From Parcubacteria group bacterium GW2011_GWB1_40_14 (GTDB lineage: Bacteria > Patescibacteriota > Minisyncoccia > Terrybacterales > GWB1-40-14), in assembly GCA_000996085.1 (NCBI GenBank), contig LBYG01000001.1:651-64650 (forward strand): a DNA stretch of 64,000 nt, written 5' to 3'. The notes beneath the pieces are model-generated. The model saw nothing but the letters and a program-made list of their open reading frames with translations. It was not told where the DNA came from and did not search any database. Position numbers and translations under genes: made by a program. Positions 3,539 to 34,765 of this stretch are shown here, one piece after another (the first letter of the stretch is position 1; each line of letters starts with the position of its first letter).

Positions 3539-4509
3539 TTTTCAACGTATTTCTCTTTAATTAGTTTATTCAATATCTTCTTAACTTTTTCAAGCGTATC
3601 CCAATCATGTATGGAAAGAGGGTAGGCCTTTATTCTATTCTTTTTGAATTGTGCAATTTTCTTCTTTAATTCTTTTGTGTCTACGGTATCGCTTTTGCTT
3701 AAAAAAACAATTTCTTTCTTTTTTAACAGTGATTTATTGTAAGCGCCCAATTCTTTTCTGATAGTTTTATAATCATGAAACGGTTTTTCAGCGTCGGCTG
3801 CGACAAGATGAAAAAGTAATTTTGTTCGCTCGACATGTTTTAAAAATTTGATACCCAGTCCTTTTCCTAAAGAAGCGCCCTCAATTAGTCCCGGAATATC
3901 AGCTAGGATAAGCTCGTAATAAGTGCCCAAATTTGGTTCCAGTGTGGTAAAAGGATAATTGGCAACCTTGCTCTGGGCGTTTGTTAATTCGTTAAGCAAG
4001 CTTGATTTGCCGGCATTTGGTATCCCAATAAATCCAACGTCAGCAATCAATTTTAACTCAAGCCGTATCGTAAATTGTTCTCCTGGAAGTCCTTTTTGAA
4101 ATTGTTTTGGGCTTGTATTGCGTGAAGAACGGAACAGGAAATTTCCTTTTCCGCCGCGGCCGCCCCTTACCGCCAAAAGACGTTCTCCTATTTTAGTTAT
4201 TTCACTGTTAGTTCCTTTAGTTTTGTTATGTATGACAGTGCCGACGGGAACCTTCAGAATTATATCTTCCCCGTTTGGACCGTCGTTTAGCTGATGCCCG
4301 CCCAACTTACCGCTTTGCGCAAAAAACTCTTTTCTATATCTGAATTGTTGCAAACTTCCAAGATCAGAAATTCCTTCAAAATAAATGTTGCCTCCGTCTC
4401 CTCCGGATCCACCCGCAGGGCCAAGACTCATTTTGGTCTTGTGAAAGGCAACCGCGCCTTTGCCTCCGTCTCCGGCCTGAACCTTTATTGTTACGTCATC
4501 TACCAACAT
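3517..4509 (-). CDS. obg: GTPase Obg
   Basis: N-terminal Obg fold with glycine-rich 'AGDGGKGAVAFHKTKMSLGPAGGSGGDGGNIYFE'. G domain with G1 GIPNAGKSSL, G3 DIPG, G4 SKSD. Shorter than E. coli Obg because it lacks a C-terminal extension. Confidence 0.9.
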   Translation of the reverse strand: MLVDDVTIKVQAGDGGKGAVAFHKTKMSLGPAGGSGGDGGNIYFEGISDLGSLQQFRYRKEFFAQSGKLGGHQLNDGPNGEDIILKVPVGTVIHNKTKGTNSEITKIGERLLAVRGGRGGKGNFLFRSSRNTSPKQFQKGLPGEQFTIRLELKLIADVGFIGIPNAGKSSLLNELTNAQSKVANYPFTTLEPNLGTYYELILADIPGLIEGASLGKGLGIKFLKHVERTKLLFHLVAADAEKPFHDYKTIRKELGAYNKSLLKKKEIVFLSKSDTVDTKELKKKIAQFKKNRIKAYPLSIHDWDTLEKVKKILNKLIKEKYVENKNSPEN

Positions 4510-4511
4510 AA

Positions 4512-5747
4512 TTAATTACTTAACGCCGGGGATAATTTAAGTTGAATGCTTTCTCCTTGCGGATAAAAGTTTAATTCTTTATTGTTTACAATATAGATTT
4601 CCTGTACATCCCACCCGTAAAGGTTCCAGGTTTCAAGGCAATCACCGGAGCCGTTATTGCATAGAACAAGATGTTTTATTCCGGCGGAGTCGATTTCATA
4701 AATTGTTTTGGGGTCTTCATCCGATTTGATCCAACGCGAAGTTAAGTATTCATTTAAAGAACCGTCATTTATTACTTTAACTTTTCCGGCAAACGGTGAG
4801 AGATGCGGATACCATTGTTCTATGTTGCTGGTAAGTATATGCCGTTTAAATTTTTTGTTTCCGGTCTTTTTTATCAGATACACTTCGTGCCTTGAGCCTT
4901 CGCGGACCAAATCTCCATCATTAAGTGATGTTTCCGGGGCGGCAATTGCCGCAAGTGTAGAAGAATGAATTATTATCGGGGTGCCCACTTCGGCCCAGTC
5001 ATATAATTCTTTATCGTCACCATCAAAAAGCCTTATGCAGCCCAAAGAATAAGCAACGCTTACTTTTTTGCCGTTTTTAAAATAAGGCCAACCATGAAGA
5101 TAATAACCGTCGCTTCTGAAGTTTAAACTCCACGGCATCCATGCCTGCGAAAGACTTGAAAGATGTTTTGGTTCTTTGCGCAATACTTTATATTTTCCTT
5201 CCGGCGTATCGCCTCGTCCCGGTCTGCCCTTGCCGGCCACAGGAAAAGTTTTAACTACTTGTCCATCCTGGAATAGGGCAATAACCATGCTTTTGAGGTT
5301 AATATCTATATATTTACCGCTTGTGATTTGCGGATCATAGACCTCTTTTGAAATTTCTGTTGTATTATTTACATTAGTAACTTTAAAGGTATATGTTTTG
5401 TTTAGCGGTCCTACGGTCGCAAAAAAAGAAGGGGAAACAACTTTTATTTCGTAGTTTATATCGGGATTAAAACCCAAGTCAGGCAAGAATATTAATTCAT
5501 GCTGATCAGTCAGCCAAATGACCTCACCTTTTGTTTCAGGGAGGATTTTGAACGAATTTATTGCGGTCTTTTCGGAGATCCAAGAAGGATATTTTACTGT
5601 TATTTGGTCACCGATCTCGGGAGTTTCGGTGCGGTCTATAGAAACCGTATATCGGGGGGTTTTTGCTATTAGTGAAAACAACAAACCGCCTGCGGTTATT
5701 CCGCTAACGATAGCTAAGAAAAGAGTAGGTTTAACGATTTTGTGCAT
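4512..5747 (-). CDS. L,D-transpeptidase (YkuD) domain protein with N-terminal membrane anchor
   Basis: Catalytic motif 'HGWPYF...SLGCIRLFDGD' matches the YkuD His/Cys signature. N-terminal TM helix. Confidence 0.7.
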   Translation of the reverse strand: MHKIVKPTLFLAIVSGITAGGLLFSLIAKTPRYTVSIDRTETPEIGDQITVKYPSWISEKTAINSFKILPETKGEVIWLTDQHELIFLPDLGFNPDINYEIKVVSPSFFATVGPLNKTYTFKVTNVNNTTEISKEVYDPQITSGKYIDINLKSMVIALFQDGQVVKTFPVAGKGRPGRGDTPEGKYKVLRKEPKHLSSLSQAWMPWSLNFRSDGYYLHGWPYFKNGKKVSVAYSLGCIRLFDGDDKELYDWAEVGTPIIIHSSTLAAIAAPETSLNDGDLVREGSRHEVYLIKKTGNKKFKRHILTSNIEQWYPHLSPFAGKVKVINDGSLNEYLTSRWIKSDEDPKTIYEIDSAGIKHLVLCNNGSGDCLETWNLYGWDVQEIYIVNNKELNFYPQGESIQLKLSPALSN

Positions 5748-7292: not shown

Positions 7293-9241
7293 ATGTTTCG
7301 CTCGAAGCGTCACGCCCGGAACTTTTTTGCTGCATCTGCCTCAGCCCTTTTGTTTTTTTCGTTGTTTGTTCCACGCAGCGCATTTGCTGTTGGTCCAGAC
7401 ATCGTCTTAAGCGAAAGCGGCTGGAGTGATCCTGCGGTAGGTAAACCGGAGTTTCTGTTAGAAATATTTCGGTAAACGGTTTCTTTTACGGGTTATATGT
7501 AAATTTCTCGACAGGCGTTACTTTAGATGCCAATACACTTGGCATTAATAATTACGGTATATATCTGAATTTTTCCGACGGTAACGTCATTCGCAATAAT
7601 TCTGTTTCAGATAGTTCCGCAACAGGCATTTTTACTCAGGAATCCGATAACAATACGATTTCCGGAAATGAAGTTCGTCTCAGCGGTTTCGGTATTTTTC
7701 TTGGGAGATCTTCTCTCAATACAGTATCGAATAACATCGCCATATCAAACGGCCTTCACGGAATTACGCTTGATTCTAATTCGAATTCAAATACTGTTGC
7801 AGATAATTTTGTTTTGGATAATAGCGCAAACGGCATTGCTTTGTTTTTGAATAGCAGCGGCAATGTTTTGTCCGGAAACACTTCTTCGGGTAATGGCGCT
7901 AACGGTTTATTGCTTTATTTCTCTCCGAATAACGTTGTGAGCAATAACGTTTCGGAAGAGAATTTTAACGGTATCCAGATCGGTTCTTTTGCCAACGATA
8001 ATAGTATTGTCGGCAATACCGTACGTAATAATTCAAATTACGGAATTTTCATTTTTGACCTCAGTACCACAAATACTGTTAAGTACAATACGGTTTCGGG
8101 TAACGGAATCGGAGTTCAGATAACCAATGCTTCGAACAATTCTGTTTACAATAATAACTTTGTAAACAATGCGGTTCAGGCAAGCGTTGAAACTAACGAA
8201 AATACTTTTGGTAACGTTTTCTATAAAGATCTGCCCGTTGGCGGAAATCATTGGAGCGATGGAATTTCTCCGGATGCGGATAACGATGGCTTGCTCGATG
8301 AACCGTATATCTTCTCTGGCGGATTCGATGCGTTTCCGTGGATTGGATTAGACGGTTGGTTTTCGTCACTCCCGCCATCAGATGTAGTTGCTCCGACCAC
8401 AGCAGTTTCTTTAAGCGGAACACAAGGCAATAACAGTTGGTATATTTCAGCCATTAGCGTTGAACTTGTTGCTACGGATAACCAAGATGGTACGGGCGTA
8501 GCCTCGACTGAATATAGTTTTGACGGCTCTTCCTGGAATCTTTATGTTGGTCCGTTTGAAGTAACGCAACAAGGCGAAACGATGCTTTACTGGCGTTCAA
8601 CTGATAATGCCGGAAACGTCGAAGAAGTCTTGTCGCAGATGCTTCGCATCGACACAAGTCCTCCTGAGATAGTTATTGCGACACCGCAGAATAACGCGGA
8701 GTATCTTTTGCATCAAATTGTTAATGCTGACTGGAGTTCTAACGATTCGGTTTCGGGATTGCTCAGCGCAGAGAGCGTTTGTCTAAACGCAGCCGCTCTT
8801 GATACTTTGCAGGAAAATGTTCATACGTGTTCAGTAACAGCGGAAGATAATGCTGGCAATATTACTACGTACAGTGTTACGTATTATGTACGCTATGTAT
8901 TCGGCGGGGTTTTACAGCCAATTAATTCCGATGGCAGTAGCGTTTTTAAACTAAAAGGCTCAATAAAAGTAGCGTTTCAATTGTTTGACGCAAACGGCAA
9001 TTTTGTTACTGATGCAATCGCTACATTAACTTATAAAAAGTTGAGTAACAGTATTTCTGGCTCGCAAAGCGAATCAGTTATTACTGAATCAGCATCAGAA
9101 GGCAACGTCTTCCGTTACGATACCGATAAAGATCAATATTTCTTCATTCTTAAGACAAAAGGATTGTCTGCCGGAACGTGGCAGCTTTCAGTCTCTCTTG
9201 ATGACGGTACGGTTTACACCGTAAATATTTCAGTAAATTAA
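7293..9241 (+). pseudogene. signal-peptide-bearing right-handed parallel beta-helix (PbH1/NosD-like) surface protein, N-terminus out of frame with the body (frameshift near 7443-7446)
   Basis: Frame 0 (7293-7475) encodes 'MFRSKRHARNFFAASASALLFFSLFVPRSAFAVGPDIVL...'. Frame 2 is open from 7445 with no ATG/GTG/TTG until 7814 and encodes beta-helix repeats ('ISVNGFFYGLYVNFSTGVTLDANTLGINNYGIYLNFSDGNVIRNN...'). It continues through the 7814-9241 ORF (N-x-I-x-x-N repeats). The C-terminus ('STEYSFDGSSWNLYVGPFEV...LYWRSTDNAGNVEE') is a chitobiase/Ig-like domain. Confidence 0.6.
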
Positions 9242-9607: not shown

Positions 9608-10069
9608 ATGAAACAAATTTCTGTATTTTTTAGACTAATAGATAAATTTTATCCTCCCGTCAAAGTGCATGCGCATTGTGATGTGCCGTGCGGTTTATAC
9701 GATACTGCTGCGGCAAAAATGGCGGCAAGTACGGTCGTTAAAATGGTAGAGAAAATTAACGCCCTGCCTGACGATGAAAAAGATCCGCAAAAAATGCTTG
9801 AGGCGCGCAATTCTTTTGTCCGTATGGTAATCACTAAAGAACAGCATGCTGAGATATGTAAGCGTGAGCTTTTAATATTATGGACAGACTTTTTTAAATC
9901 CGAGCATCTTGAAATGTTTCCGCAATTACACGAAACATTTTGGCATGCCGCTAAATTATGTTCTAAAAATAAACAGAATATAAGCGCGGAAGCCGCGGAG
10001 GAATTACAGGAAGCGGTGGTTAAGATAGAAGAAATGTTTCTGGCCGTAAAAGCTAAATCAGTAAAATAG
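9608..10069 (+). CDS. sodN: nickel superoxide dismutase precursor
   Basis: After a 22-aa leader comes 'HCDVPCGLYD', the Ni-hook motif of NiSOD (His1-Cys2-x-x-Pro5-Cys6-Gly-x-Tyr9). The remaining ~130 aa match the helical-bundle length. Cognate peptidase gene follows. Confidence 0.8.
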   Translation: MKQISVFFRLIDKFYPPVKVHAHCDVPCGLYDTAAAKMAASTVVKMVEKINALPDDEKDPQKMLEARNSFVRMVITKEQHAEICKRELLILWTDFFKSEHLEMFPQLHETFWHAAKLCSKNKQNISAEAAEELQEAVVKIEEMFLAVKAKSVK

Positions 10070-12470: not shown

Positions 12471-12505
12471 ACCCATTTTTTCATATTTATTAAAGGCGGT
12501 TTGTG

Positions 12506-12573
12506 CCAGGTAGTGAAAATTCGACCGTTCGCCAATGGCGAACAAAGGCTTAAGTCGAATTTCTACTACCTGG
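12506..12573. repeat. nested palindromic element: ~20-bp outer stem (ccaggtagtgaaaattcgac / gtcgaatttctactacctgg) enclosing inner hairpin gttcgcc-aatg-gcgaac
   Basis: Read directly. Same architecture and partial sequence similarity to the elements at 15694-15775 and 33306-33431. Confidence 0.6.
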
Positions 12574-12590
12574 TGTGGTATAATATTCTT

Positions 12591-12881
12591 ATGGATATAG
12601 AATTTCTACAAACCGTTTTTTTTGTTGTCGCAATTATTTTCTTTATCATTGTGGGTGTTTTAGTTTTGCCCGCGCTTATCCGCATTAACCGGATTCTTAA
12701 GCGAGTCGATTCTATTTCCAAAGATCTTGTTGGTCCCGCAAAACATTTAGCTAAGGCCGCAGCTGCTTTACAGGAAAGCGCCATAGCCGCAGGAGTAGCT
12801 TATTTTATTAAAAAGGCGCATGATTTTATGGAAAACAGAACTGAAGATCATCATAATCAACCACCAAGAAGAGTGTTATAA
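12591..12881 (+). CDS. DUF948-like small membrane protein
   Basis: Start moved to the ATG at 12591; the ORF-track TTG start at 12501 lies inside the palindromic element. One TM helix then a helical region, typical of the DUF948/YtxG group. Extended -10 'tggtataat' sits 6 nt upstream of the ATG (possible leaderless mRNA). Confidence 0.45.
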   Translation: MDIEFLQTVFFVVAIIFFIIVGVLVLPALIRINRILKRVDSISKDLVGPAKHLAKAAAALQESAIAAGVAYFIKKAHDFMENRTEDHHNQPPRRVL

Positions 12882-12910: not shown

Positions 12911-13312
12911 ATGGCCACTAAAAAATACATATACGAAAGCGATGCTTTAAAAGCAGCAAAGAAAACAGCTGCTTCAGCGGGAACATTAGCCGCGCTAGTT
13001 GGAGCGGCTGCCGGTTTTGCAGCGGTACTTTTCTCACCCAAATACGGGAAACAATTAAAATCAGAAGTTGGTTCAGTTGCCGAAGCCGTTAAAGCTCAGG
13101 TTGCAGCTGACGCGGCATTGCAGTTAAATAAAGTAAAAGTCATGTCAAAAACCGTATATGATGCAATAGTGCAGGAGGCTATGGCTGAATATAACAAAAG
13201 TTCAAGAATGGCCGAAAAGGATCTGAAAGTTATCGAAAAGGATCTTGATAAAAGATGGAAACATATTTTGCGTGTGGCTAAAGCAAGTCAGAAAAATTCT
13301 TCTGCAAAATAG
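12911..13312 (+). CDS. YtxH-like protein
   Basis: 'GTLAALVGAAAGFAAVLFSPKYGKQLKSEV' matches the YtxH N-terminal motif. Helical remainder. Confidence 0.5.
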   Translation: MATKKYIYESDALKAAKKTAASAGTLAALVGAAAGFAAVLFSPKYGKQLKSEVGSVAEAVKAQVAADAALQLNKVKVMSKTVYDAIVQEAMAEYNKSSRMAEKDLKVIEKDLDKRWKHILRVAKASQKNSSAK

Positions 13313-15393: not shown

Positions 15394-15693
15394 ATGTCGG
15401 TTAATCTGAATGATGAGTGTCAAACAGAAAAGAAAATTGCGAACATCTTGAAGATAGCAGCTATTAAAGAAATTAAGAGAATAGGCTTTGACGAAGCATC
15501 TGAGAAATTAAGTTTATCTCGTACCGGTTTGAGGTTGATTTGGTCAAAGGAAAGATGGAAAGTTACTGAAGCTATTCGTGTTGCCGAAGCGCTTAATTTG
15601 CCGGCGCTAAAAAAGATGTTGCGCGTATTAGATAAAACTGACGGAAGATCAGGATCTGAAGAAGGGGATTATCCTGATTGGAAAATGCAATAA
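15394..15693 (+). CDS. XRE/Cro-like helix-turn-helix protein
   Basis: 'FDEASEKLSLSRTGLRLIWSKERWKVTEAIRVAEALNL' fits the HTH_3 pattern. 99 aa. Confidence 0.45.
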   Translation: MSVNLNDECQTEKKIANILKIAAIKEIKRIGFDEASEKLSLSRTGLRLIWSKERWKVTEAIRVAEALNLPALKKMLRVLDKTDGRSGSEEGDYPDWKMQ

Positions 15694-15775
15694 GCCCAGT
15701 AGAGCTACCTCGACTGTTCCCTTTGGCGTCGCCAAAGGGAACAAAAACTAAAGTGTCGAGGTAATTCTACTGGGT
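15694..15775. repeat. nested palindromic element: outer stem (cccagtagagctacctcgac / gtcgaggtaattctactggg) enclosing inner hairpin ccctttggcg-t-cgccaaaggg
   Basis: Read directly. Begins 1 nt after the HTH gene stop. Related to the elements at 12506 and 33306. Confidence 0.6.
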
Positions 15776-15803
15776 AAGCCTCAATAATGAGGCTTTTAAT
15801 TTA
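15776..15803 (+). terminator. plus-strand terminator (aagcctca-ataa-tgaggctt + ttaattta)
   Basis: Perfect 8-bp stem plus T-rich tail. Confidence 0.6.
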
Positions 15804-28991: not shown

Positions 28992-30497
28992 ATGGATTCT
29001 AAAAAAATAATTGAAGAACTTAGAAAAGAAATATCCGGAGCAAAATTAGAAACTCGAGCGGAACAAACCGGCAATGTTCTTTTGGTAAAAGACGGCGTTA
29101 TACGTATTTCCGGGCTTTATTCGGTCGGAGCGCTGGAAATGTTGACTGTAAGAACCTCAGAAGGAGAAATTTCTGCAATGGCCTTAAACCTTGGGGCCGA
29201 AGATGTCGGAGCCATAGTTTTGGGCGATTGGGAAAAAATTAAGGAAGGCGATGAAGTTGTCGGAACCGGAAAAATTCTTTCTGTTCCTGTCGGCAAGGCT
29301 TTTTTAGGACGAGTTGTTAATCCTTTAGGCGAATCTTTGGATGGTAAGGGGCCGATTCATGCCGACAGATATAACCAGCTTGAGCGCATTGCGCCCGGTG
29401 TTATCACGAGAAAATCCGTAGATACATCTTTAGCTACAGGAATCAAAGCCATAGATGCAATGATCCCGATAGGACGCGGTCAGCGTGAACTTATTATCGG
29501 TGACAGACAAGTGGGTAAAACTGCGATTGCCGTTGATACCATTATCAATCAAAAAAATTCAGACGTTAAATCTATTTACGTTGCCATAGGTCAGAAATTA
29601 TCACGTGTTGTAAAAATAGTTGCGGAATTGGAAAAGCGGGGCGCTTTAGATAATACGATAGTTGTTGTGGCCTCAGCTTCTGATCCTGCTGCTTATTCGT
29701 ATATTGCGCCGTATGCCGGATGTGCTATGGGCGAATATTTTATGGACGAGGGACAAGATGCTTTGGTGGTTTATGACGATCTCTCCCGTCATGCATGGGC
29801 TTATCGTCAGGTGAGTCTTTTGCTTGAACGCTCCCCAGGACGTGAAGCTTATCCCGGAGATGTTTTCTATTTACACTCACGTCTTCTTGAACGCGCCGCT
29901 AAACTTTCAAAAGAATATGGAGGAGGCTCTTTAACGGCTTTACCGATAATTGAAACTCAAGCGGGCGATATTTCCGCATATATTCCGACAAATGTTATTT
30001 CAATTACCGACGGTCAAATATATCTTGAACCGGAATTATTTTACCAAGGAACCCGTCCTGCTTTAAATGTAGGTTTGTCTGTATCCCGCGTGGGTTCTGC
30101 CGCTCAGACCAAAGCGATGAAAAAAGTTGCCGGTAAGTTGCGTTTGGATCTGGCTCAATATCGTGAATTGGCTGTTTTTGCTCAGTTTGCGCAAGATTTA
30201 GATGAAGCTACCAAGAAACAACTTGAGCGAGGCAAGCGCCTTACTGAATTATTAAAACAAGGTCTATACGCGCCCGTTCCTGTAGAAGAGCAGGTTGTAG
30301 TATTGTATGCCGGTGTTAATGGTTATCTTGATAATATTGCACCGGAAAAAATTCATGATTGGGAAGAAGGCTTTATTGAATACTTGAAACGTCAAAATAA
30401 TAAAATACTTGAAAATATACGCATCAGTAAAAATTTGGAAGAAGATACAGAGAATATGCTTAAAGAAGCGACAGAAGGATACAACAAGATTCTATGA
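28992..30497 (+). CDS. atpA: F0F1 ATP synthase subunit alpha
   Basis: Walker A '[11 protein letters not shown]' and highly conserved alpha-subunit blocks ([43 protein letters not shown]). Confidence 0.95.
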
Positions 30498-30727
30498 GCT
30501 TAATGGGTAAAATAATAGGAAGCAGAAAGGGGATATTTATACTACTTTTTATTCTGATTATTTTGCTCGCCGCCATATTTTTCTGGCAAACCATTATAAC
30601 CATAAGAGTAAAAACATATTACAAAGAAGTAGAGCTTAATAATAAAAAACAGGAATACATGCAAAGACTTGAAAAAATAATTAAAACTGAGCAAGAACAA
30701 AAATTAAATATTGTATCCGGTAATTAA
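30494..30727 (+). CDS. hypothetical small membrane protein inserted between atpA and atpG
   Basis: 77 aa with one TM helix. 4-nt overlap with the atpA stop, ends 3 nt before atpG. Confidence 0.4.
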
Positions 30728-30729
30728 AA

Positions 30730-31647
30730 TTGTATATGGCACAGAATACACGAGAATTAAGAAGAAGAATAAAATCCACAAAATCTATCAGGCAGATAAC
30801 TAAAGCTATGGAAATGATAGCCGCAAGCAAAATGCGTAAAGCGCAGCTTGCAGCTTTATCTTCGCGTCCATATTCTGTTTTAGCGTGGGAAATGCTTTCT
30901 TCGGTAGCCGAAAAATCGGAACAGTTTGCCGGAGCCGACGCCGAATTGTTCTATAAATTTTTATCCAGAGGAATAAAGGTTAATTTAAATAAAGAACTTA
31001 TAATTTTAATAACATCAAATAGGGGATTGTGCGGTTCCTTAAATTCACAATTGGTGAATGCCGCGTTTTCAATAGTAAAGAACAATAAAGACACGTTCGA
31101 CGAGCTCAGTGCAAGTAAATATTCATTTATAATTGTCGGAAGAAAAGGTTTGCGCTCTGCGTTACGTTTAGGTCTGGATGTTTTTGCGTCTTATGACGGT
31201 TTTGAAAATCAACCAACTTTTGCCGATACATTGCCGATCGCGCGTTCTGTTATGGATAGTTTTGCCGGCGGACAATTCAAAAGCGTAAAACTTATTTATG
31301 CGGATTTTATTTCCACACTTAAATATGAGATCCGTGTAACGCAGCTTTTGCCGATCAACATAGGTGATGAATCTGTCGAGACAAAGCATGCGGAATTTTT
31401 ATTTGAACCTTCGCCGGCAGAAGTACTGAATTCTTTGATCCCGAGATTGATAGAATTACAGGTTTATCAGGCGCTGGTTGAGAATTTGGCTTCGGAGCAT
31501 TCAGCGCGCATGGTAAATATGAAAAACGCTTCTGATTCTGCCCGCGATATTATCAATGATCTTACTCTTACTTATAATTCAGTCCGTCAGGCGTCTATTA
31601 CTGCTGATTTGGCAGATATAATAGGCGGCAGAATGGCGGTGAAGTGA
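30730..31647 (+). CDS. atpG: F0F1 ATP synthase subunit gamma
   Basis: N-terminal 'RRRIKSTKSIRQITKAMEMIAASKMRKAQ' and C-terminal 'ITADLADIIGG' gamma-subunit signatures. Confidence 0.85.
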   Translation: MYMAQNTRELRRRIKSTKSIRQITKAMEMIAASKMRKAQLAALSSRPYSVLAWEMLSSVAEKSEQFAGADAELFYKFLSRGIKVNLNKELIILITSNRGLCGSLNSQLVNAAFSIVKNNKDTFDELSASKYSFIIVGRKGLRSALRLGLDVFASYDGFENQPTFADTLPIARSVMDSFAGGQFKSVKLIYADFISTLKYEIRVTQLLPINIGDESVETKHAEFLFEPSPAEVLNSLIPRLIELQVYQALVENLASEHSARMVNMKNASDSARDIINDLTLTYNSVRQASITADLADIIGGRMAVK

Positions 31648-31794
31648 AGACTTATGCGTTTGTCCTTTTTTTCGCTCATTCTCGGCAAGCCAGCGCTTGC
31701 CTCCGAGGTTTCGACTGTTTTGTCCCTCGTATTACTCGGGAACCATGCCAAAACAGCCTCAAAAACCGCTCAAAAAAGACAAACGTCTAAGTCT
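31648..31794. repeat. palindromic element in atpG-atpD spacer: 17-bp terminal inverted repeat (agacttatgcgtttgtc / gacaaacgtctaagtct) around a ~110-nt GC-richer core; contains a 47-codon ORF (31654-31797)
   Basis: Read directly. The core shares blocks (ggtttcgact, tccctcg, ctcggga, ccgctcaaa) with the atpD in-frame insertion at ~31955-32015. Confidence 0.55.
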
Positions 31795-31825
31795 TAACAA
31801 GGGTAGAAAGAGGAAATAAAAATAA

Positions 31826-33271
<1,446 letters not shown>

Positions 33272-33305
33272 AATGCAAAGTGAAAAGCTGAAAATAATGC
33301 ATGAA

Positions 33306-33431
33306 CCCCGTTAGAAAATTGCTATTATTTATGGATTATTATTTATATAAAAAGAGTTGTTCGGTTTATAATAGTCAAACAAGTTTTTCGACTTGTTTGA
33401 CCGTTAACTTTTCGGCAATTTTCTAACGGGG
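33306..33431. repeat. nested palindromic element: 17-bp outer stem (ccccgttagaaaattgc / gcaattttctaacgggg) enclosing perfect inner hairpin gtcaaacaagt-ttttc-gacttgtttgac
   Basis: Read directly. Shares the 'tttcgact(t)gtttg' core with the atpG-atpD spacer element and 'gaaaatt' with the 12506 element. Confidence 0.6.
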
Positions 33432-33661
33432 TGAAAAAATTTCTTGCGGATCTAGTTTTAATTACCAGTTTAACCGTTCTCATTTTTGGTTTAGGCTTAT
33501 TTTTTGGCTTTGCGCCAAGATACACTAGCGGTGAAAGCCTTGAGGGGTTAGTCCAATTTTTCTCTATATTAGTCGGACTAATACTATTTTTTATCTATTT
33601 AGTTTTAGTGTTTAGCGAACCCGAAAGAACAGAACAAAAAAATAATCCAAATAGGTATTGA
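33431..33661 (+). CDS. hypothetical small membrane protein (GTG start) preceding atpC
   Basis: 76 aa with two TM helices. Start lies within the right arm of the palindromic element. Stop overlaps the atpC leader. Confidence 0.3.
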   Translation: MKKFLADLVLITSLTVLIFGLGLFFGFAPRYTSGESLEGLVQFFSILVGLILFFIYLVLVFSEPERTEQKNNPNRY

Positions 33662-34568: not shown

Positions 34569-34737
34569 GCGATTGACCCAGCCCCAATTCTTAATTAGAG
34601 CTGGGTTGACCCCACACCAGTTTTTGCATAATGAACTATCGGTTTTGGAGCGTTGTAACACCCCAAAACTTTTGTATTATCGATAAAAGTTAAAGTTTGG
34701 TATATCTGAATATTCTTGCGCAAAAATGGTGTGTGGG

Positions 34738-34765
34738 TTGACTTTTATGATAAAAAGAGTATAAT
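34738..34765 (+). promoter_or_regulatory. sigma70-like promoter TTGACT-N16-TATAAT
   Basis: Read directly. Followed by the 5'-UTR hairpin 'cgtcta-acaagttaaat-tagacg', which abuts the RBS 'gaggt'. Confidence 0.45.

Follow-up and report, generated by a model that had tools for sequence, protein, structure and literature searches.

Nested palindromes in a Parcubacteria genome are MITE-type mobile elements with relatives that encode a GIY-YIG nuclease

Several intergenic palindromes in a 64,000-nt stretch of the Parcubacteria group bacterium GW2011_GWB1_40_14 genome (hereafter, the window) are mobile DNA and not dedicated RNA regulators. Two of them, E1 and E2, are very probably non-autonomous MITE-type transposable elements of a single family (family A). 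With the same high confidence, E3 and two elements near 34.6 kb are MITEs of separate families that likewise start with CCC. Family A is presumably mobilised in trans by an enzyme that recognises its ends, a GIY-YIG nuclease being the likeliest candidate. Each element consists of two ~20-bp terminal inverted repeats (TIRs) flanking a short variable interior. A preliminary description had called such sites nested palindromes, because the TIR pair encloses an interior that usually forms a hairpin of its own. The coordinates of all features are collected in Table 1.

Table 1. Palindromic elements, their target-site duplications and an adjacent hairpin in the window
Feature	Position	Strand	Remarks
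E1, family-A MITE, 68 bp	12506..12573	+	TIRs CCAGGTAGTGAAAATTCGAC / GTCGAATTTCTACTACCTGG; inner hairpin GTTCGCC-AAT-GGCGAAC, then A-rich tail
E1 target-site duplication TGTG, left copy	12502..12505	.	right copy 12574-12577, read from sequence
E2, family-A MITE, 80 bp	15695..15774	+	TIRs CCCAGTAGAGCTACCTCGAC / GTCGAGGTAATTCTACTGGG; 13-bp inner hairpin
E2 target-site duplication TAAG, left copy	15691..15694	.	right copy 15775-15778
Intrinsic-terminator-like hairpin, host sequence	15776..15795	+	directly 3' of E2; also in strains without E2
E4, hairpin-forming region, 155 bp	31644..31798	.	atpG-atpD spacer
E3, family-B MITE, 126 bp	33306..33431	+	TIR CCCCGTTAGAAAATTGC, 17/17 complementary; inner hairpin 33375-33401
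E3 target-site duplication TGAA, left copy	33302..33305	.	right copy 33432-33435
Mini-palindrome, 29 bp, CCCAGCCCCAATTCTTAATTAGAGCTGGG	34577..34605	.	flanked by TTGA at 34573-34576 and 34606-34609
E5, 128-bp MITE	34610..34737	.	TIRs CCCCACACCAG... / ...GGTGTGTGGG; inner palindrome 34663-34700; TTGA at 34606-34609 and 34738-34741

The palindromes are real and lie far beyond chance. Inverted repeats enclosing an inner hairpin had been described at 12506-12573, 15694-15775, 33306-33431 and 31648-31794, and arms were found at all four places: 12506-12525 with 12554-12573 in E1 and 15695-15714 with 15755-15774 in E2 (both 18/20 complementary), 33305-33322 with 33415-33432 in E3 (18/18), and 31644-31670 with 31772-31798 in E4 (85%). 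The folds of E1 to E4 were more stable than those of dinucleotide shuffles (z of -5.4 to -12), with predicted RNA hairpins of -37 to -66 kcal/mol. Both strands fold about equally well, each carrying one G.T and one A.C pair in a check of strand asymmetry. A strict scan of the window, requiring a CC start, 10-nt arms and an exact 4-bp direct repeat, returned E1, E2 and E3 and gave 0 matches in 20 shuffles. The arms of the window elements measure 17-20 bp, and E1, E2, E3 and E5, which at 68, 80, 126 and 128 bp lie well below the ~500-bp size limit of MITEs, have no ORF inside. Every one of these elements is bordered by a 4-bp target-site duplication: TGTG for E1, TAAG for E2, TGAA for E3, and TTGA for the mini-palindrome and E5. 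An Rfam scan at gathering and E-value thresholds gave no match at the elements, nor any in the window.

E1 and E2 have 20-bp TIRs of the form CCNNGTAG...TCGAC around a variable inner hairpin, and they align in register as CCNNGTAGNGNNANNTCGAC-N-GTTC[hairpin]GAAC-AAA...-GTCGANNTNNTNCTACNNGG. Both show a G.T pair plus a mismatch at arm positions 10/11, and both contain the junction motifs TCGAC-N-GTTC and GAACAAA...GTCGA; the pattern GAACAAA-N(3-16)-GTCGA occurs twice in the window against 0.15 expected. A covariance model built from 68 family copies found E1 (67.8 bits) and E2 (59.3 bits) in the window and nothing else there. The partial sequence similarity proposed for all of the sites therefore holds for E1 and E2 as one family, but E3 and E4 fall outside it. 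As a count for the source genome, these two family-A copies cover the 64-kb window only. The interior of E1 makes it a member of the subfamily TGTTCGCCAAAGGCGAACAAAAGATGAAAAT, and its right TGTG copy is part of TGTGGTATAAT, a look-alike of an extended -10 box. E1 was found in all eight strain contigs compared.

Mobility is seen most directly at E2. Twenty near-identical contigs were fetched, and the E2 site was compared in ten of them. The element is carried by the window and by L002, L007 and L009, and is missing from L001, L003-L006, L008 and L010 (four present, seven absent). The contigs without E2 (7/10) are shorter by exactly 84 bp, which is the 80-bp element plus its 4-bp duplication. 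Their empty site reads GCAATAAGCCTCAAT, with a single TAAG, while the filled site reads GCAATAAG, then the element (CCCAGTAG...CTACTGGG), then TAAGCCTCAAT. E2 is a presence/absence polymorphism with exact boundaries. Its left TAAG includes the TAA stop of a 99-aa ORF (15394-15693). Three other length differences among the strains were considered as elements and rejected: 145 bp at 7444/7445 is a deletion within a beta-helix gene, 99 bp in L001 reflects an alternative gene 3' end, and 116 bp in L011 is a scaffold gap. The AtpD protein encoded in the window is 100% identical to proteins of Parcubacteria GW2011_GWA2_40_8 and Terrybacteria RIFCSPLOWO2_01_FULL_40, members of a groundwater population.

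More distant relatives supplied empty sites for the remaining elements. The sites of E3, the mini-palindrome and E5 are all empty in L154, the closest relative compared (AtpD 91% identical). At the E3 site, L154 reads ...AATACT ATGAAAAAATTT, whereas the window reads GCA-TGAA-E3-TGAA-AAAATTT. The insertion at TGAA overlaps the original ATG of a 76-aa ORF, which now begins with a GTG at 33431 (ORF 33431..33661) made of the last G of the E3 TIR and the TG of the right TGAA. Two elements had been described as abutting start codons; E3 does so through this GTG, but the ATG at 12591 lies 17 nt beyond E1. The E3 TIR (CCCCGTTAGAAA...) recurs with 4-bp duplications in L138 (941-1106), L036 (2618-2721) and L102 (232-357), and mini forms of 29-33 bp with this TIR are also present in the fetched loci.

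Near 34.6 kb lie two further elements that the preliminary description had overlooked, at 34577-34605 and 34610-34737. This mini-palindrome and E5 stand in tandem between three copies of TTGA, inside a TTGACT -35 box. L154 has an unbroken GGGATTGACTTTTAAT...TATAAT at this site with its TTGACT -35 box uninterrupted; therefore, the last TTGA restores the box after E5. TIRs related to those of E5 occur with 4-bp duplications in L079 (1937-2036), L027 (1456-1622) and L102 (4543-4669 and 6920-7046). E3, the mini-palindrome and E5 thus resemble family A in their CCC start and 4-bp duplications.

The hairpin-forming region E4 is a different case. The atpG-atpD spacer that contains it is 187 nt long in the window, compared with 2 nt in L154 and 5 nt in a second relative, L155, so that E4 is an insertion by comparison with either of them. 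It lacks CCC ends and a 4-bp duplication, does not match the covariance model, and has no second copy in 839 kb of loci. We kept E4 apart from the MITE families because it lacks CCC ends, a duplication and another copy. A core of tcgact(g)tt had been thought to link E4 to the other sites, but words like TCGACTGTT or TCGACNGTTC occur at chance level, with 8 matches against 7.7 expected. A record lookup for the atpC ORF that starts with TTG came back empty.

Family A extends well beyond the window. E2-type TIRs recur in another Terrybacteria genome; two copies in Candidatus Terrybacteria RIFCSPHIGHO2_01_FULL_43_35 have E2-type arms, CAAG and TGTG duplications, and wholly different inner hairpins. 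We scanned metagenomes with a pattern that fixed arm positions only and allowed interiors of ≤ 48 nt, and at least 118 contigs matched, mostly from groundwater and sediment. The 4-bp flanks were identical in 76 of 108 unique sites, as compared to 0-6 in controls with either flank shifted. The number of independent insertion events is below 108, because these unique sites include orthologous sites of related genomes. The covariance model detected ~125 sites in 100 loci (661 kb), ~20 of which the exact pattern had missed. Further copies and flanking duplications, two of the things that the preliminary description had proposed to look for, were thus both found, with more than 100 additional copies in other genomes and metagenomes. 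A scan of viral contigs for the junction pattern gave three matches, all attributable to chance and without hairpins.

Comparison of copies indicated that the arms are maintained as pairs and that the targets vary. Across 68 copies, eight arm pairs showed double changes (130 cells) and pairing was kept in 94% of cells, while some of the conserved TIR positions were set by the search pattern itself. Arm position 11 was unpaired in 64/68 copies, even though the pattern left it free. Inner sequences differ completely between copies, which adjoin unrelated genes. The duplicated words are mainly of the form YWWR (TATG 32, TAAA 7, and also CTTG, CAAG, TCAA, TTTA and TTTG). Near-identical copies of the E1 subfamily carry five different duplications: TAAG, TTTG, TAAA, TATG and TTTA. 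Since targets vary within one subfamily, the duplication results from a staggered cut in the target DNA rather than an overhang inherited with the element, and we rejected a restriction-ligation model with fixed, inherited 4-nt overhangs on the same grounds. Insertion duplicates 4 bp of the target.

The insertions that persist are found at gene punctuation, namely start codons, stop codons and promoter boxes, and beyond the element the signal is re-created by the duplicated 4 bp. In the window, the signals rebuilt are a TAA stop (E2), a new GTG start (E3) and the TTGACT -35 box (E5). Among the 108 metagenomic sites, the right-hand duplication was xATG in 40, and in 30 of these 40 the ATG opens an ORF that is at least 60 codons long or runs off the contig, compared with 27% for all TATG words. 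In approximately 30 cases the insertion coincides exactly with the start codon of a host ORF of at least 60 codons, most often at TATG, and the element runs in the same direction as the gene. A single insertion on a start codon has the opposite orientation, and in six others the element falls, as E2 does, on a stop codon that ends the upstream ORF. Away from start codons, orientation was roughly balanced. This orientation bias at start codons could stem from selection or from a mechanistic preference.

Many TATG targets are preceded by boxes resembling a -10 element, whose ends lie 6-12 nt from the ATG, which suggests that leaders of the targeted genes may be short or absent. Tandem arrays sharing TATG are common. 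Element lengths range from 66 to 83 nt without bias toward multiples of three, so an element and its duplication do not in general serve as a frame-keeping N-terminal extension of the host protein. In genomes this compact, insertions into gene punctuation with a duplication that rebuilds the signal may be the main survivors.

Longer relatives of family A encode a protein. Elements of ~315 bp with family TIRs and 4-bp duplications occur in L058 (3484-3803, TGGA), L075 (8564-8876, TATG) and L029 (140-461, TATG). These three are 86% alike, and each directly adjoins a MITE of the same TIR type, so that a MITE and a coding element stand in tandem on the same contig. Further elements with the same TIRs and 4-bp duplications were identified in L144 and L157, and both arms of E1 are identical to the TIRs of the one in L144. 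The single ORF of each ~315-bp element encodes a ~90-residue nuclease resembling the Slx1/UPF0213 group of GIY-YIG proteins (Pfam PF01541, E = 7.5e-17). In L075, L029, L144 and L157, the duplicated host ATG is in frame with this ORF through the left TIR, giving M-PGSENS.... The element in L127 has a diverged TIR and a protein of 48% identity; its ORF has no start codon other than the duplicated ATG, and the second ATG serves as the start of the host gene.

A protein search returned 767 homologue clusters at 90% identity, the named ones coming from Patescibacteria, Parcubacteria and Nealsonbacteria. Among the best 120 of the 767 clusters, 97 start with Met followed by the TIR-encoded PGSENS, and 106 contain the peptide, 9 of them without an internal Met. 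The query included the PGSENS peptide, which biases retrieval toward it, although the set still represents ~100 distinct clusters at 90% identity. Across 94 homologues, Y27, G29, R37 and E73 are invariant and Y14 and Y16 nearly so. An AlphaFold model of the ORF had a pLDDT of 83, and its best Foldseek matches were 1zg2, 7cq2, 4xm5 and 6seh, the closest being UPF0213 BH0048 and Slx1. By its motifs, its predicted catalytic Arg and Glu and its modelled alpha/beta fold, the protein is assigned to the Slx1/UPF0213 branch of the GIY-YIG superfamily. It has no obvious DNA-binding domain.

Stand-alone Slx1/UPF0213 nucleases of the BH0048 type thus match this ORF in fold and catalytic motifs, but here the gene sits within an element bounded by TIRs and a target duplication. 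Prokaryotic Slx1-like proteins have been described as vertically inherited repair enzymes, and the selfish GIY-YIG members as derivatives of a UvrC-related lineage (PMC1564403). Our literature searches found no description of an element with TIRs and a target duplication that encodes only a GIY-YIG protein.

We consider the GIY-YIG nuclease the most likely mobilising or co-mobilising factor of family A. It was the only protein found between family-A ends in 839 kb of loci, and its ORF has long remained in frame with the TIR, which argues for a nuclease that serves the element. One enzyme recognising the CCNNGTAG...TCGAC ends would move the MITEs and the coding elements alike, the former in trans. 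A possible reading, which we rate as somewhat less likely than not, is that the ~315-bp elements are an unrecognised type of autonomous transposon whose sole protein is the ~90-residue Slx1-like nuclease, and that the 60-80-bp palindromes of the window are deletion derivatives mobilised by it in trans. Such a transposon would have no promoter of its own and often no start codon of its own. It would insert at a host TATG, the ORF would be translated from the duplicated ATG through the left TIR, and the host gene would keep the second ATG. To our knowledge, no GIY-YIG nuclease catalyses transposition or strand transfer.

A serious rival, which we regard as possible but do not prefer, is that the palindromes are MITEs of the usual kind, belonging to a classical DDE insertion sequence such as one of the IS1380/piggyBac type, with the GIY-YIG ORF as cargo or as an invading homing-endonuclease gene. 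TIRs with a fixed-length duplication are the signature of DDE transposition, and a subfamily with one interior and varied duplications is what staggered cutting of varied targets predicts. The CC ends and 4-bp duplication would fit IS1380 as tabulated in ISfinder. We take the likeness as a lead only: CC(C) ends and an AT-rich 4-bp duplication of approximately YWWR (TATG, TAAA, TTTA) seem to us comparable to the TTAA of piggyBac. However, no DDE transposase was found with these ends. We searched the 839 kb of loci for approximate TIR matches and for paired TIRs separated by 150-4000 bp and bordered by exact 4-bp duplications, and detected no transposase between family TIRs, leaving the GIY-YIG ORF as the only coding content. 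The long TIR-pair candidates enclosed a mannosyltransferase, a tyrosine integrase with a beta-lactamase-fold protein, or a fumarase with a lycopene cyclase, and none of them had family TIRs. A DDE transposase acting in trans nonetheless stays a serious contender, because the loci were collected via the MITE pattern (interiors ≤ 48 nt), a sample not designed for long elements and in which long autonomous ones appear by chance only.

Two further observations count against a passenger role for the nuclease: its catalytic residues are kept over hundreds of clusters, and the ORF keeps its in-frame connection to the TIR even where protein identity has fallen to 48%. Mobile insertion cassettes (MICs) are TIR-flanked cassettes that carry passenger genes and no transposase, and the ~315-bp elements resemble them in having TIRs, a duplication and one non-transposase ORF. 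Unlike the passenger genes of MICs, the nuclease ORF has been conserved in hundreds of copies; it forms an in-frame fusion with the left TIR and frequently lacks its own start codon. Free-standing GIY-YIG homing endonuclease genes are likewise small selfish nuclease genes between host genes. A homing endonuclease possesses DNA-binding domains and uses gene conversion to spread to a single cognate site, whereas the elements here occupy many unrelated sites and have TIRs and target duplications.

A less probable alternative, and one that we consider unlikely, holds that the elements act in cis as RNA structures, such as attenuators, mRNA stabilisers or RNase III processing sites, and are retained to regulate their neighbours. 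The predicted hairpins are very stable, and all of the elements lie in transcribed intergenic positions, oriented with the flanking genes. RNase processing is documented for the Correia and ERIC MITEs (PMC10969869), which we count in favour of this alternative. An attenuator or RNA processing site, as initially suggested, is nevertheless unsupported as the reason for the existence of these elements. E2 is dispensed with in most of the near-identical strains compared, and the closest relative, with its atp genes 2-6 nt apart (2 nt between atpG and atpD, and 6 nt from atpD to the next small ORF), has neither E3 nor the 34.6-kb elements. The neighbouring genes are unrelated, the interiors are wholly different and unconserved, Rfam was blank, and the two strands fold with about equal stability. 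Mobile elements may still influence host mRNAs. Judging by sequence, a transcribed copy would place a stable hairpin in the 5' leader or 3' UTR of an mRNA, with possible consequences for the stability or translation of that mRNA. Plausible effects include those of the leader and 3'-UTR hairpins themselves and of short upstream ORFs ending in the right TIR.

We think it very unlikely that the palindromes are REP/REPIN elements mobilised by RAYT, a Y1 HUH transposase. The conserved GTAG/CTAC near the ends recalls the GTAG tetranucleotide that is a hallmark of REPs, and the short, intergenic, hairpin-forming doublets have a similar layout. On the other hand, the elements show a consistent 4-bp target-site duplication and true 20-bp TIRs, their arms are not themselves palindromic REPs, and neither a Y1 transposase nor a RAYT was present among the inspected ORFs of the loci. 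Insertions of the REP/REPIN or IS200/IS605 type are not known to duplicate their target. The earlier proposal of a REP/MITE-like mobile repeat family survives in its MITE half, with 4-bp duplications and more than 100 further copies, while the REP half is unsupported, REPs not being known to make target duplications. The PATE elements derived from IS200/IS605 have subterminal hairpins, no TIRs and no duplication, and insert 3' of one fixed tetranucleotide; here, the TIRs are true and the duplicated tetranucleotide varies within one subfamily.

Chance palindromes, plain terminators or integron attC sites, which the location downstream of genes and the imperfect palindromes might recall, are refuted by the more than 100 homologous copies elsewhere, the flank identity (76/108), the 0 comparable sites in shuffles, the lack of a T-run after the E1 and E2 stems and, given that attC sites have R''/R' cores (RYYYAAC...GTTRRRY) at their outer ends and accompany an integrase or cassette array, by outer ends of CCNNGTAG/CTACNNGG with no R''/R' core sites and no integrase among the neighbouring genes.

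As MITE-type elements, the palindromes join a well-described class. Prokaryotic MITEs are characterised by a length below 500 bp, TIRs, direct repeats, intergenic position and clustering, and the review that lists these features makes no mention of CPR bacteria or GIY-YIG (PMC10969869). The Correia elements of Neisseria, ERIC and RUP are like the family described here in having ~20-bp TIRs, target duplications, no transposase and positions near gene starts, in inserting beside or into one another, and in forming mRNA hairpins. The present elements differ in belonging to another sequence family, in their Patescibacteria/Parcubacteria host, and in the many copies placed exactly on a start codon. 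Their duplication is 4 bp long, as opposed to TA in Correia, and their coding relatives carry a GIY-YIG nuclease and not a DDE transposase.

Bacteria of the candidate phyla radiation (CPR) have genomes of ~1 Mb with almost no intergenic space. The mobile repeats of these bacteria have been little studied. Our literature searches found no report of MITEs in CPR/Patescibacteria, and the elements described here are new MITE families in this bacterial group. Several MITE families are active in the CPR, as the polymorphism of one insertion between co-occurring strains shows. The insertions show how elements can survive in compact genomes, by landing on punctuation and rebuilding the interrupted signal through the duplication. 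They also have a practical consequence for the annotation of CPR genes, where they give rise to false "MPGSENS..." N-termini and displaced start codons. The palindromes are furthermore linked to hundreds of tiny elements whose sole gene is an Slx1-type GIY-YIG nuclease fused to the terminal repeat, and this coding relative could be a new kind of transposon. If the nuclease does drive mobility, it would represent a new enzyme class for DNA transposition and would supply a role for some of the bacterial UPF0213 proteins, a family at present unexplained.

The terminal inverted repeats (TIRs) of the elements are not perfect mirror images. At arm positions 10-11 of the alignment (A7), the main type consistently differs between left (GA) and right (AG), while the type represented by E2, a MITE in the window, has GC on the left and AT on the right. 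In 64 of 68 copies, arm position 11 forms no base pair. Symmetric arms occur in a few of the GIY-YIG elements, the ~315-bp relatives that carry the family TIRs and a single nuclease ORF, and there the N-terminus reads MPGSRNS. Mini-palindromes of 25-33 bp consist of hardly more than two shortened TIRs. A full MITE often immediately adjoins a mini-palindrome, with the 4-bp duplication common to both.

Mini-palindromes, and small ORFs of the atp operon
Feature	Sequence	Coordinates	Length	Location
Mini-palindrome	L025	4201-4233
Mini-palindrome	L103	6159-6187
Mini-palindrome	L126	2743-2770
Mini-palindrome	L076	2452-2476
Mini-palindrome	window	34577-34605
Small ORF	window	30494-30727	77 aa	between atpA and atpG
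Small ORF	window	33431-33661	76 aa	between atpD and atpC

At the start of atpD, a different element is apparently present in another strain of the population. In the near-identical strain contig L011, the counterpart of the sequence upstream of window position 31835 (9913-10000) contains a scaffold gap (a run of N), behind which lies an alternative sequence ending in ...ACAGACTTCTAACGGG followed by ATG. This end is a right TIR of the type found in E3, the MITE behind atpD, and it is placed directly against the atpD start codon. Neither small ORF of the atp operon has a Pfam match, and both are kept in the closest relative, L154 (AtpD 91% identical), at 1869-2102 and 4378-4608. The atpD-atpC position is occupied by a 285-aa ORF in the 84% relative. 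AtpD itself is longer in the window (478 aa) than in either of the two closest relatives (456-457 aa), and its N-terminal region (31885-32010) contains two insertions that keep the reading frame. One of them, a GC-rich stretch of 48 nt at about 31950-32005 in a genome of 38% GC, has no second copy among the sequences compared.

Strains also differed at other genes. The window lacks 145 bp at 7444/7445 that are present in all other strain contigs. This site lies inside a 697-aa NosD/beta-helix gene whose ORFs are split there in the window, which therefore has a strain-specific deletion or pseudogene. In one strain (L001 11536-11640, approximately window 13250-13312), the 3' end of the YtxH-like gene is a divergent alternative of 99 bp, which looks like a recombined allele, not a MITE.

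GIY-YIG elements were found within operons too (L157 1170-1215 and L144 1490-1505), where the targeted ATG meets or overlaps the end of the upstream gene. The L157 dprA ORF as called extends 11 nt into the element, so the C-terminus of its product is probably altered by the insertion. A GIY-YIG homologue on the minus strand of L120 (1100-1480) adjoins a tRNA-Cys-like sequence. Its insertion context differs from that of the TIR elements, with a 10-bp direct repeat, AAGTAGCTAA, and a partial second copy of the tRNA 5' end flanking it.

The left flanks of TATG-type insertions, most of which are sited on a host start codon (e.g., L038, L047, L079, L104, and L141), contain extended -10-like boxes: TGATATAAT, TGATAGAAT, TGTTACAAT, and TGATAAAAT. 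These boxes end 6-12 nt before the targeted ATG, a placement which suggests that leaders are very short or absent in many of these CPR genes.
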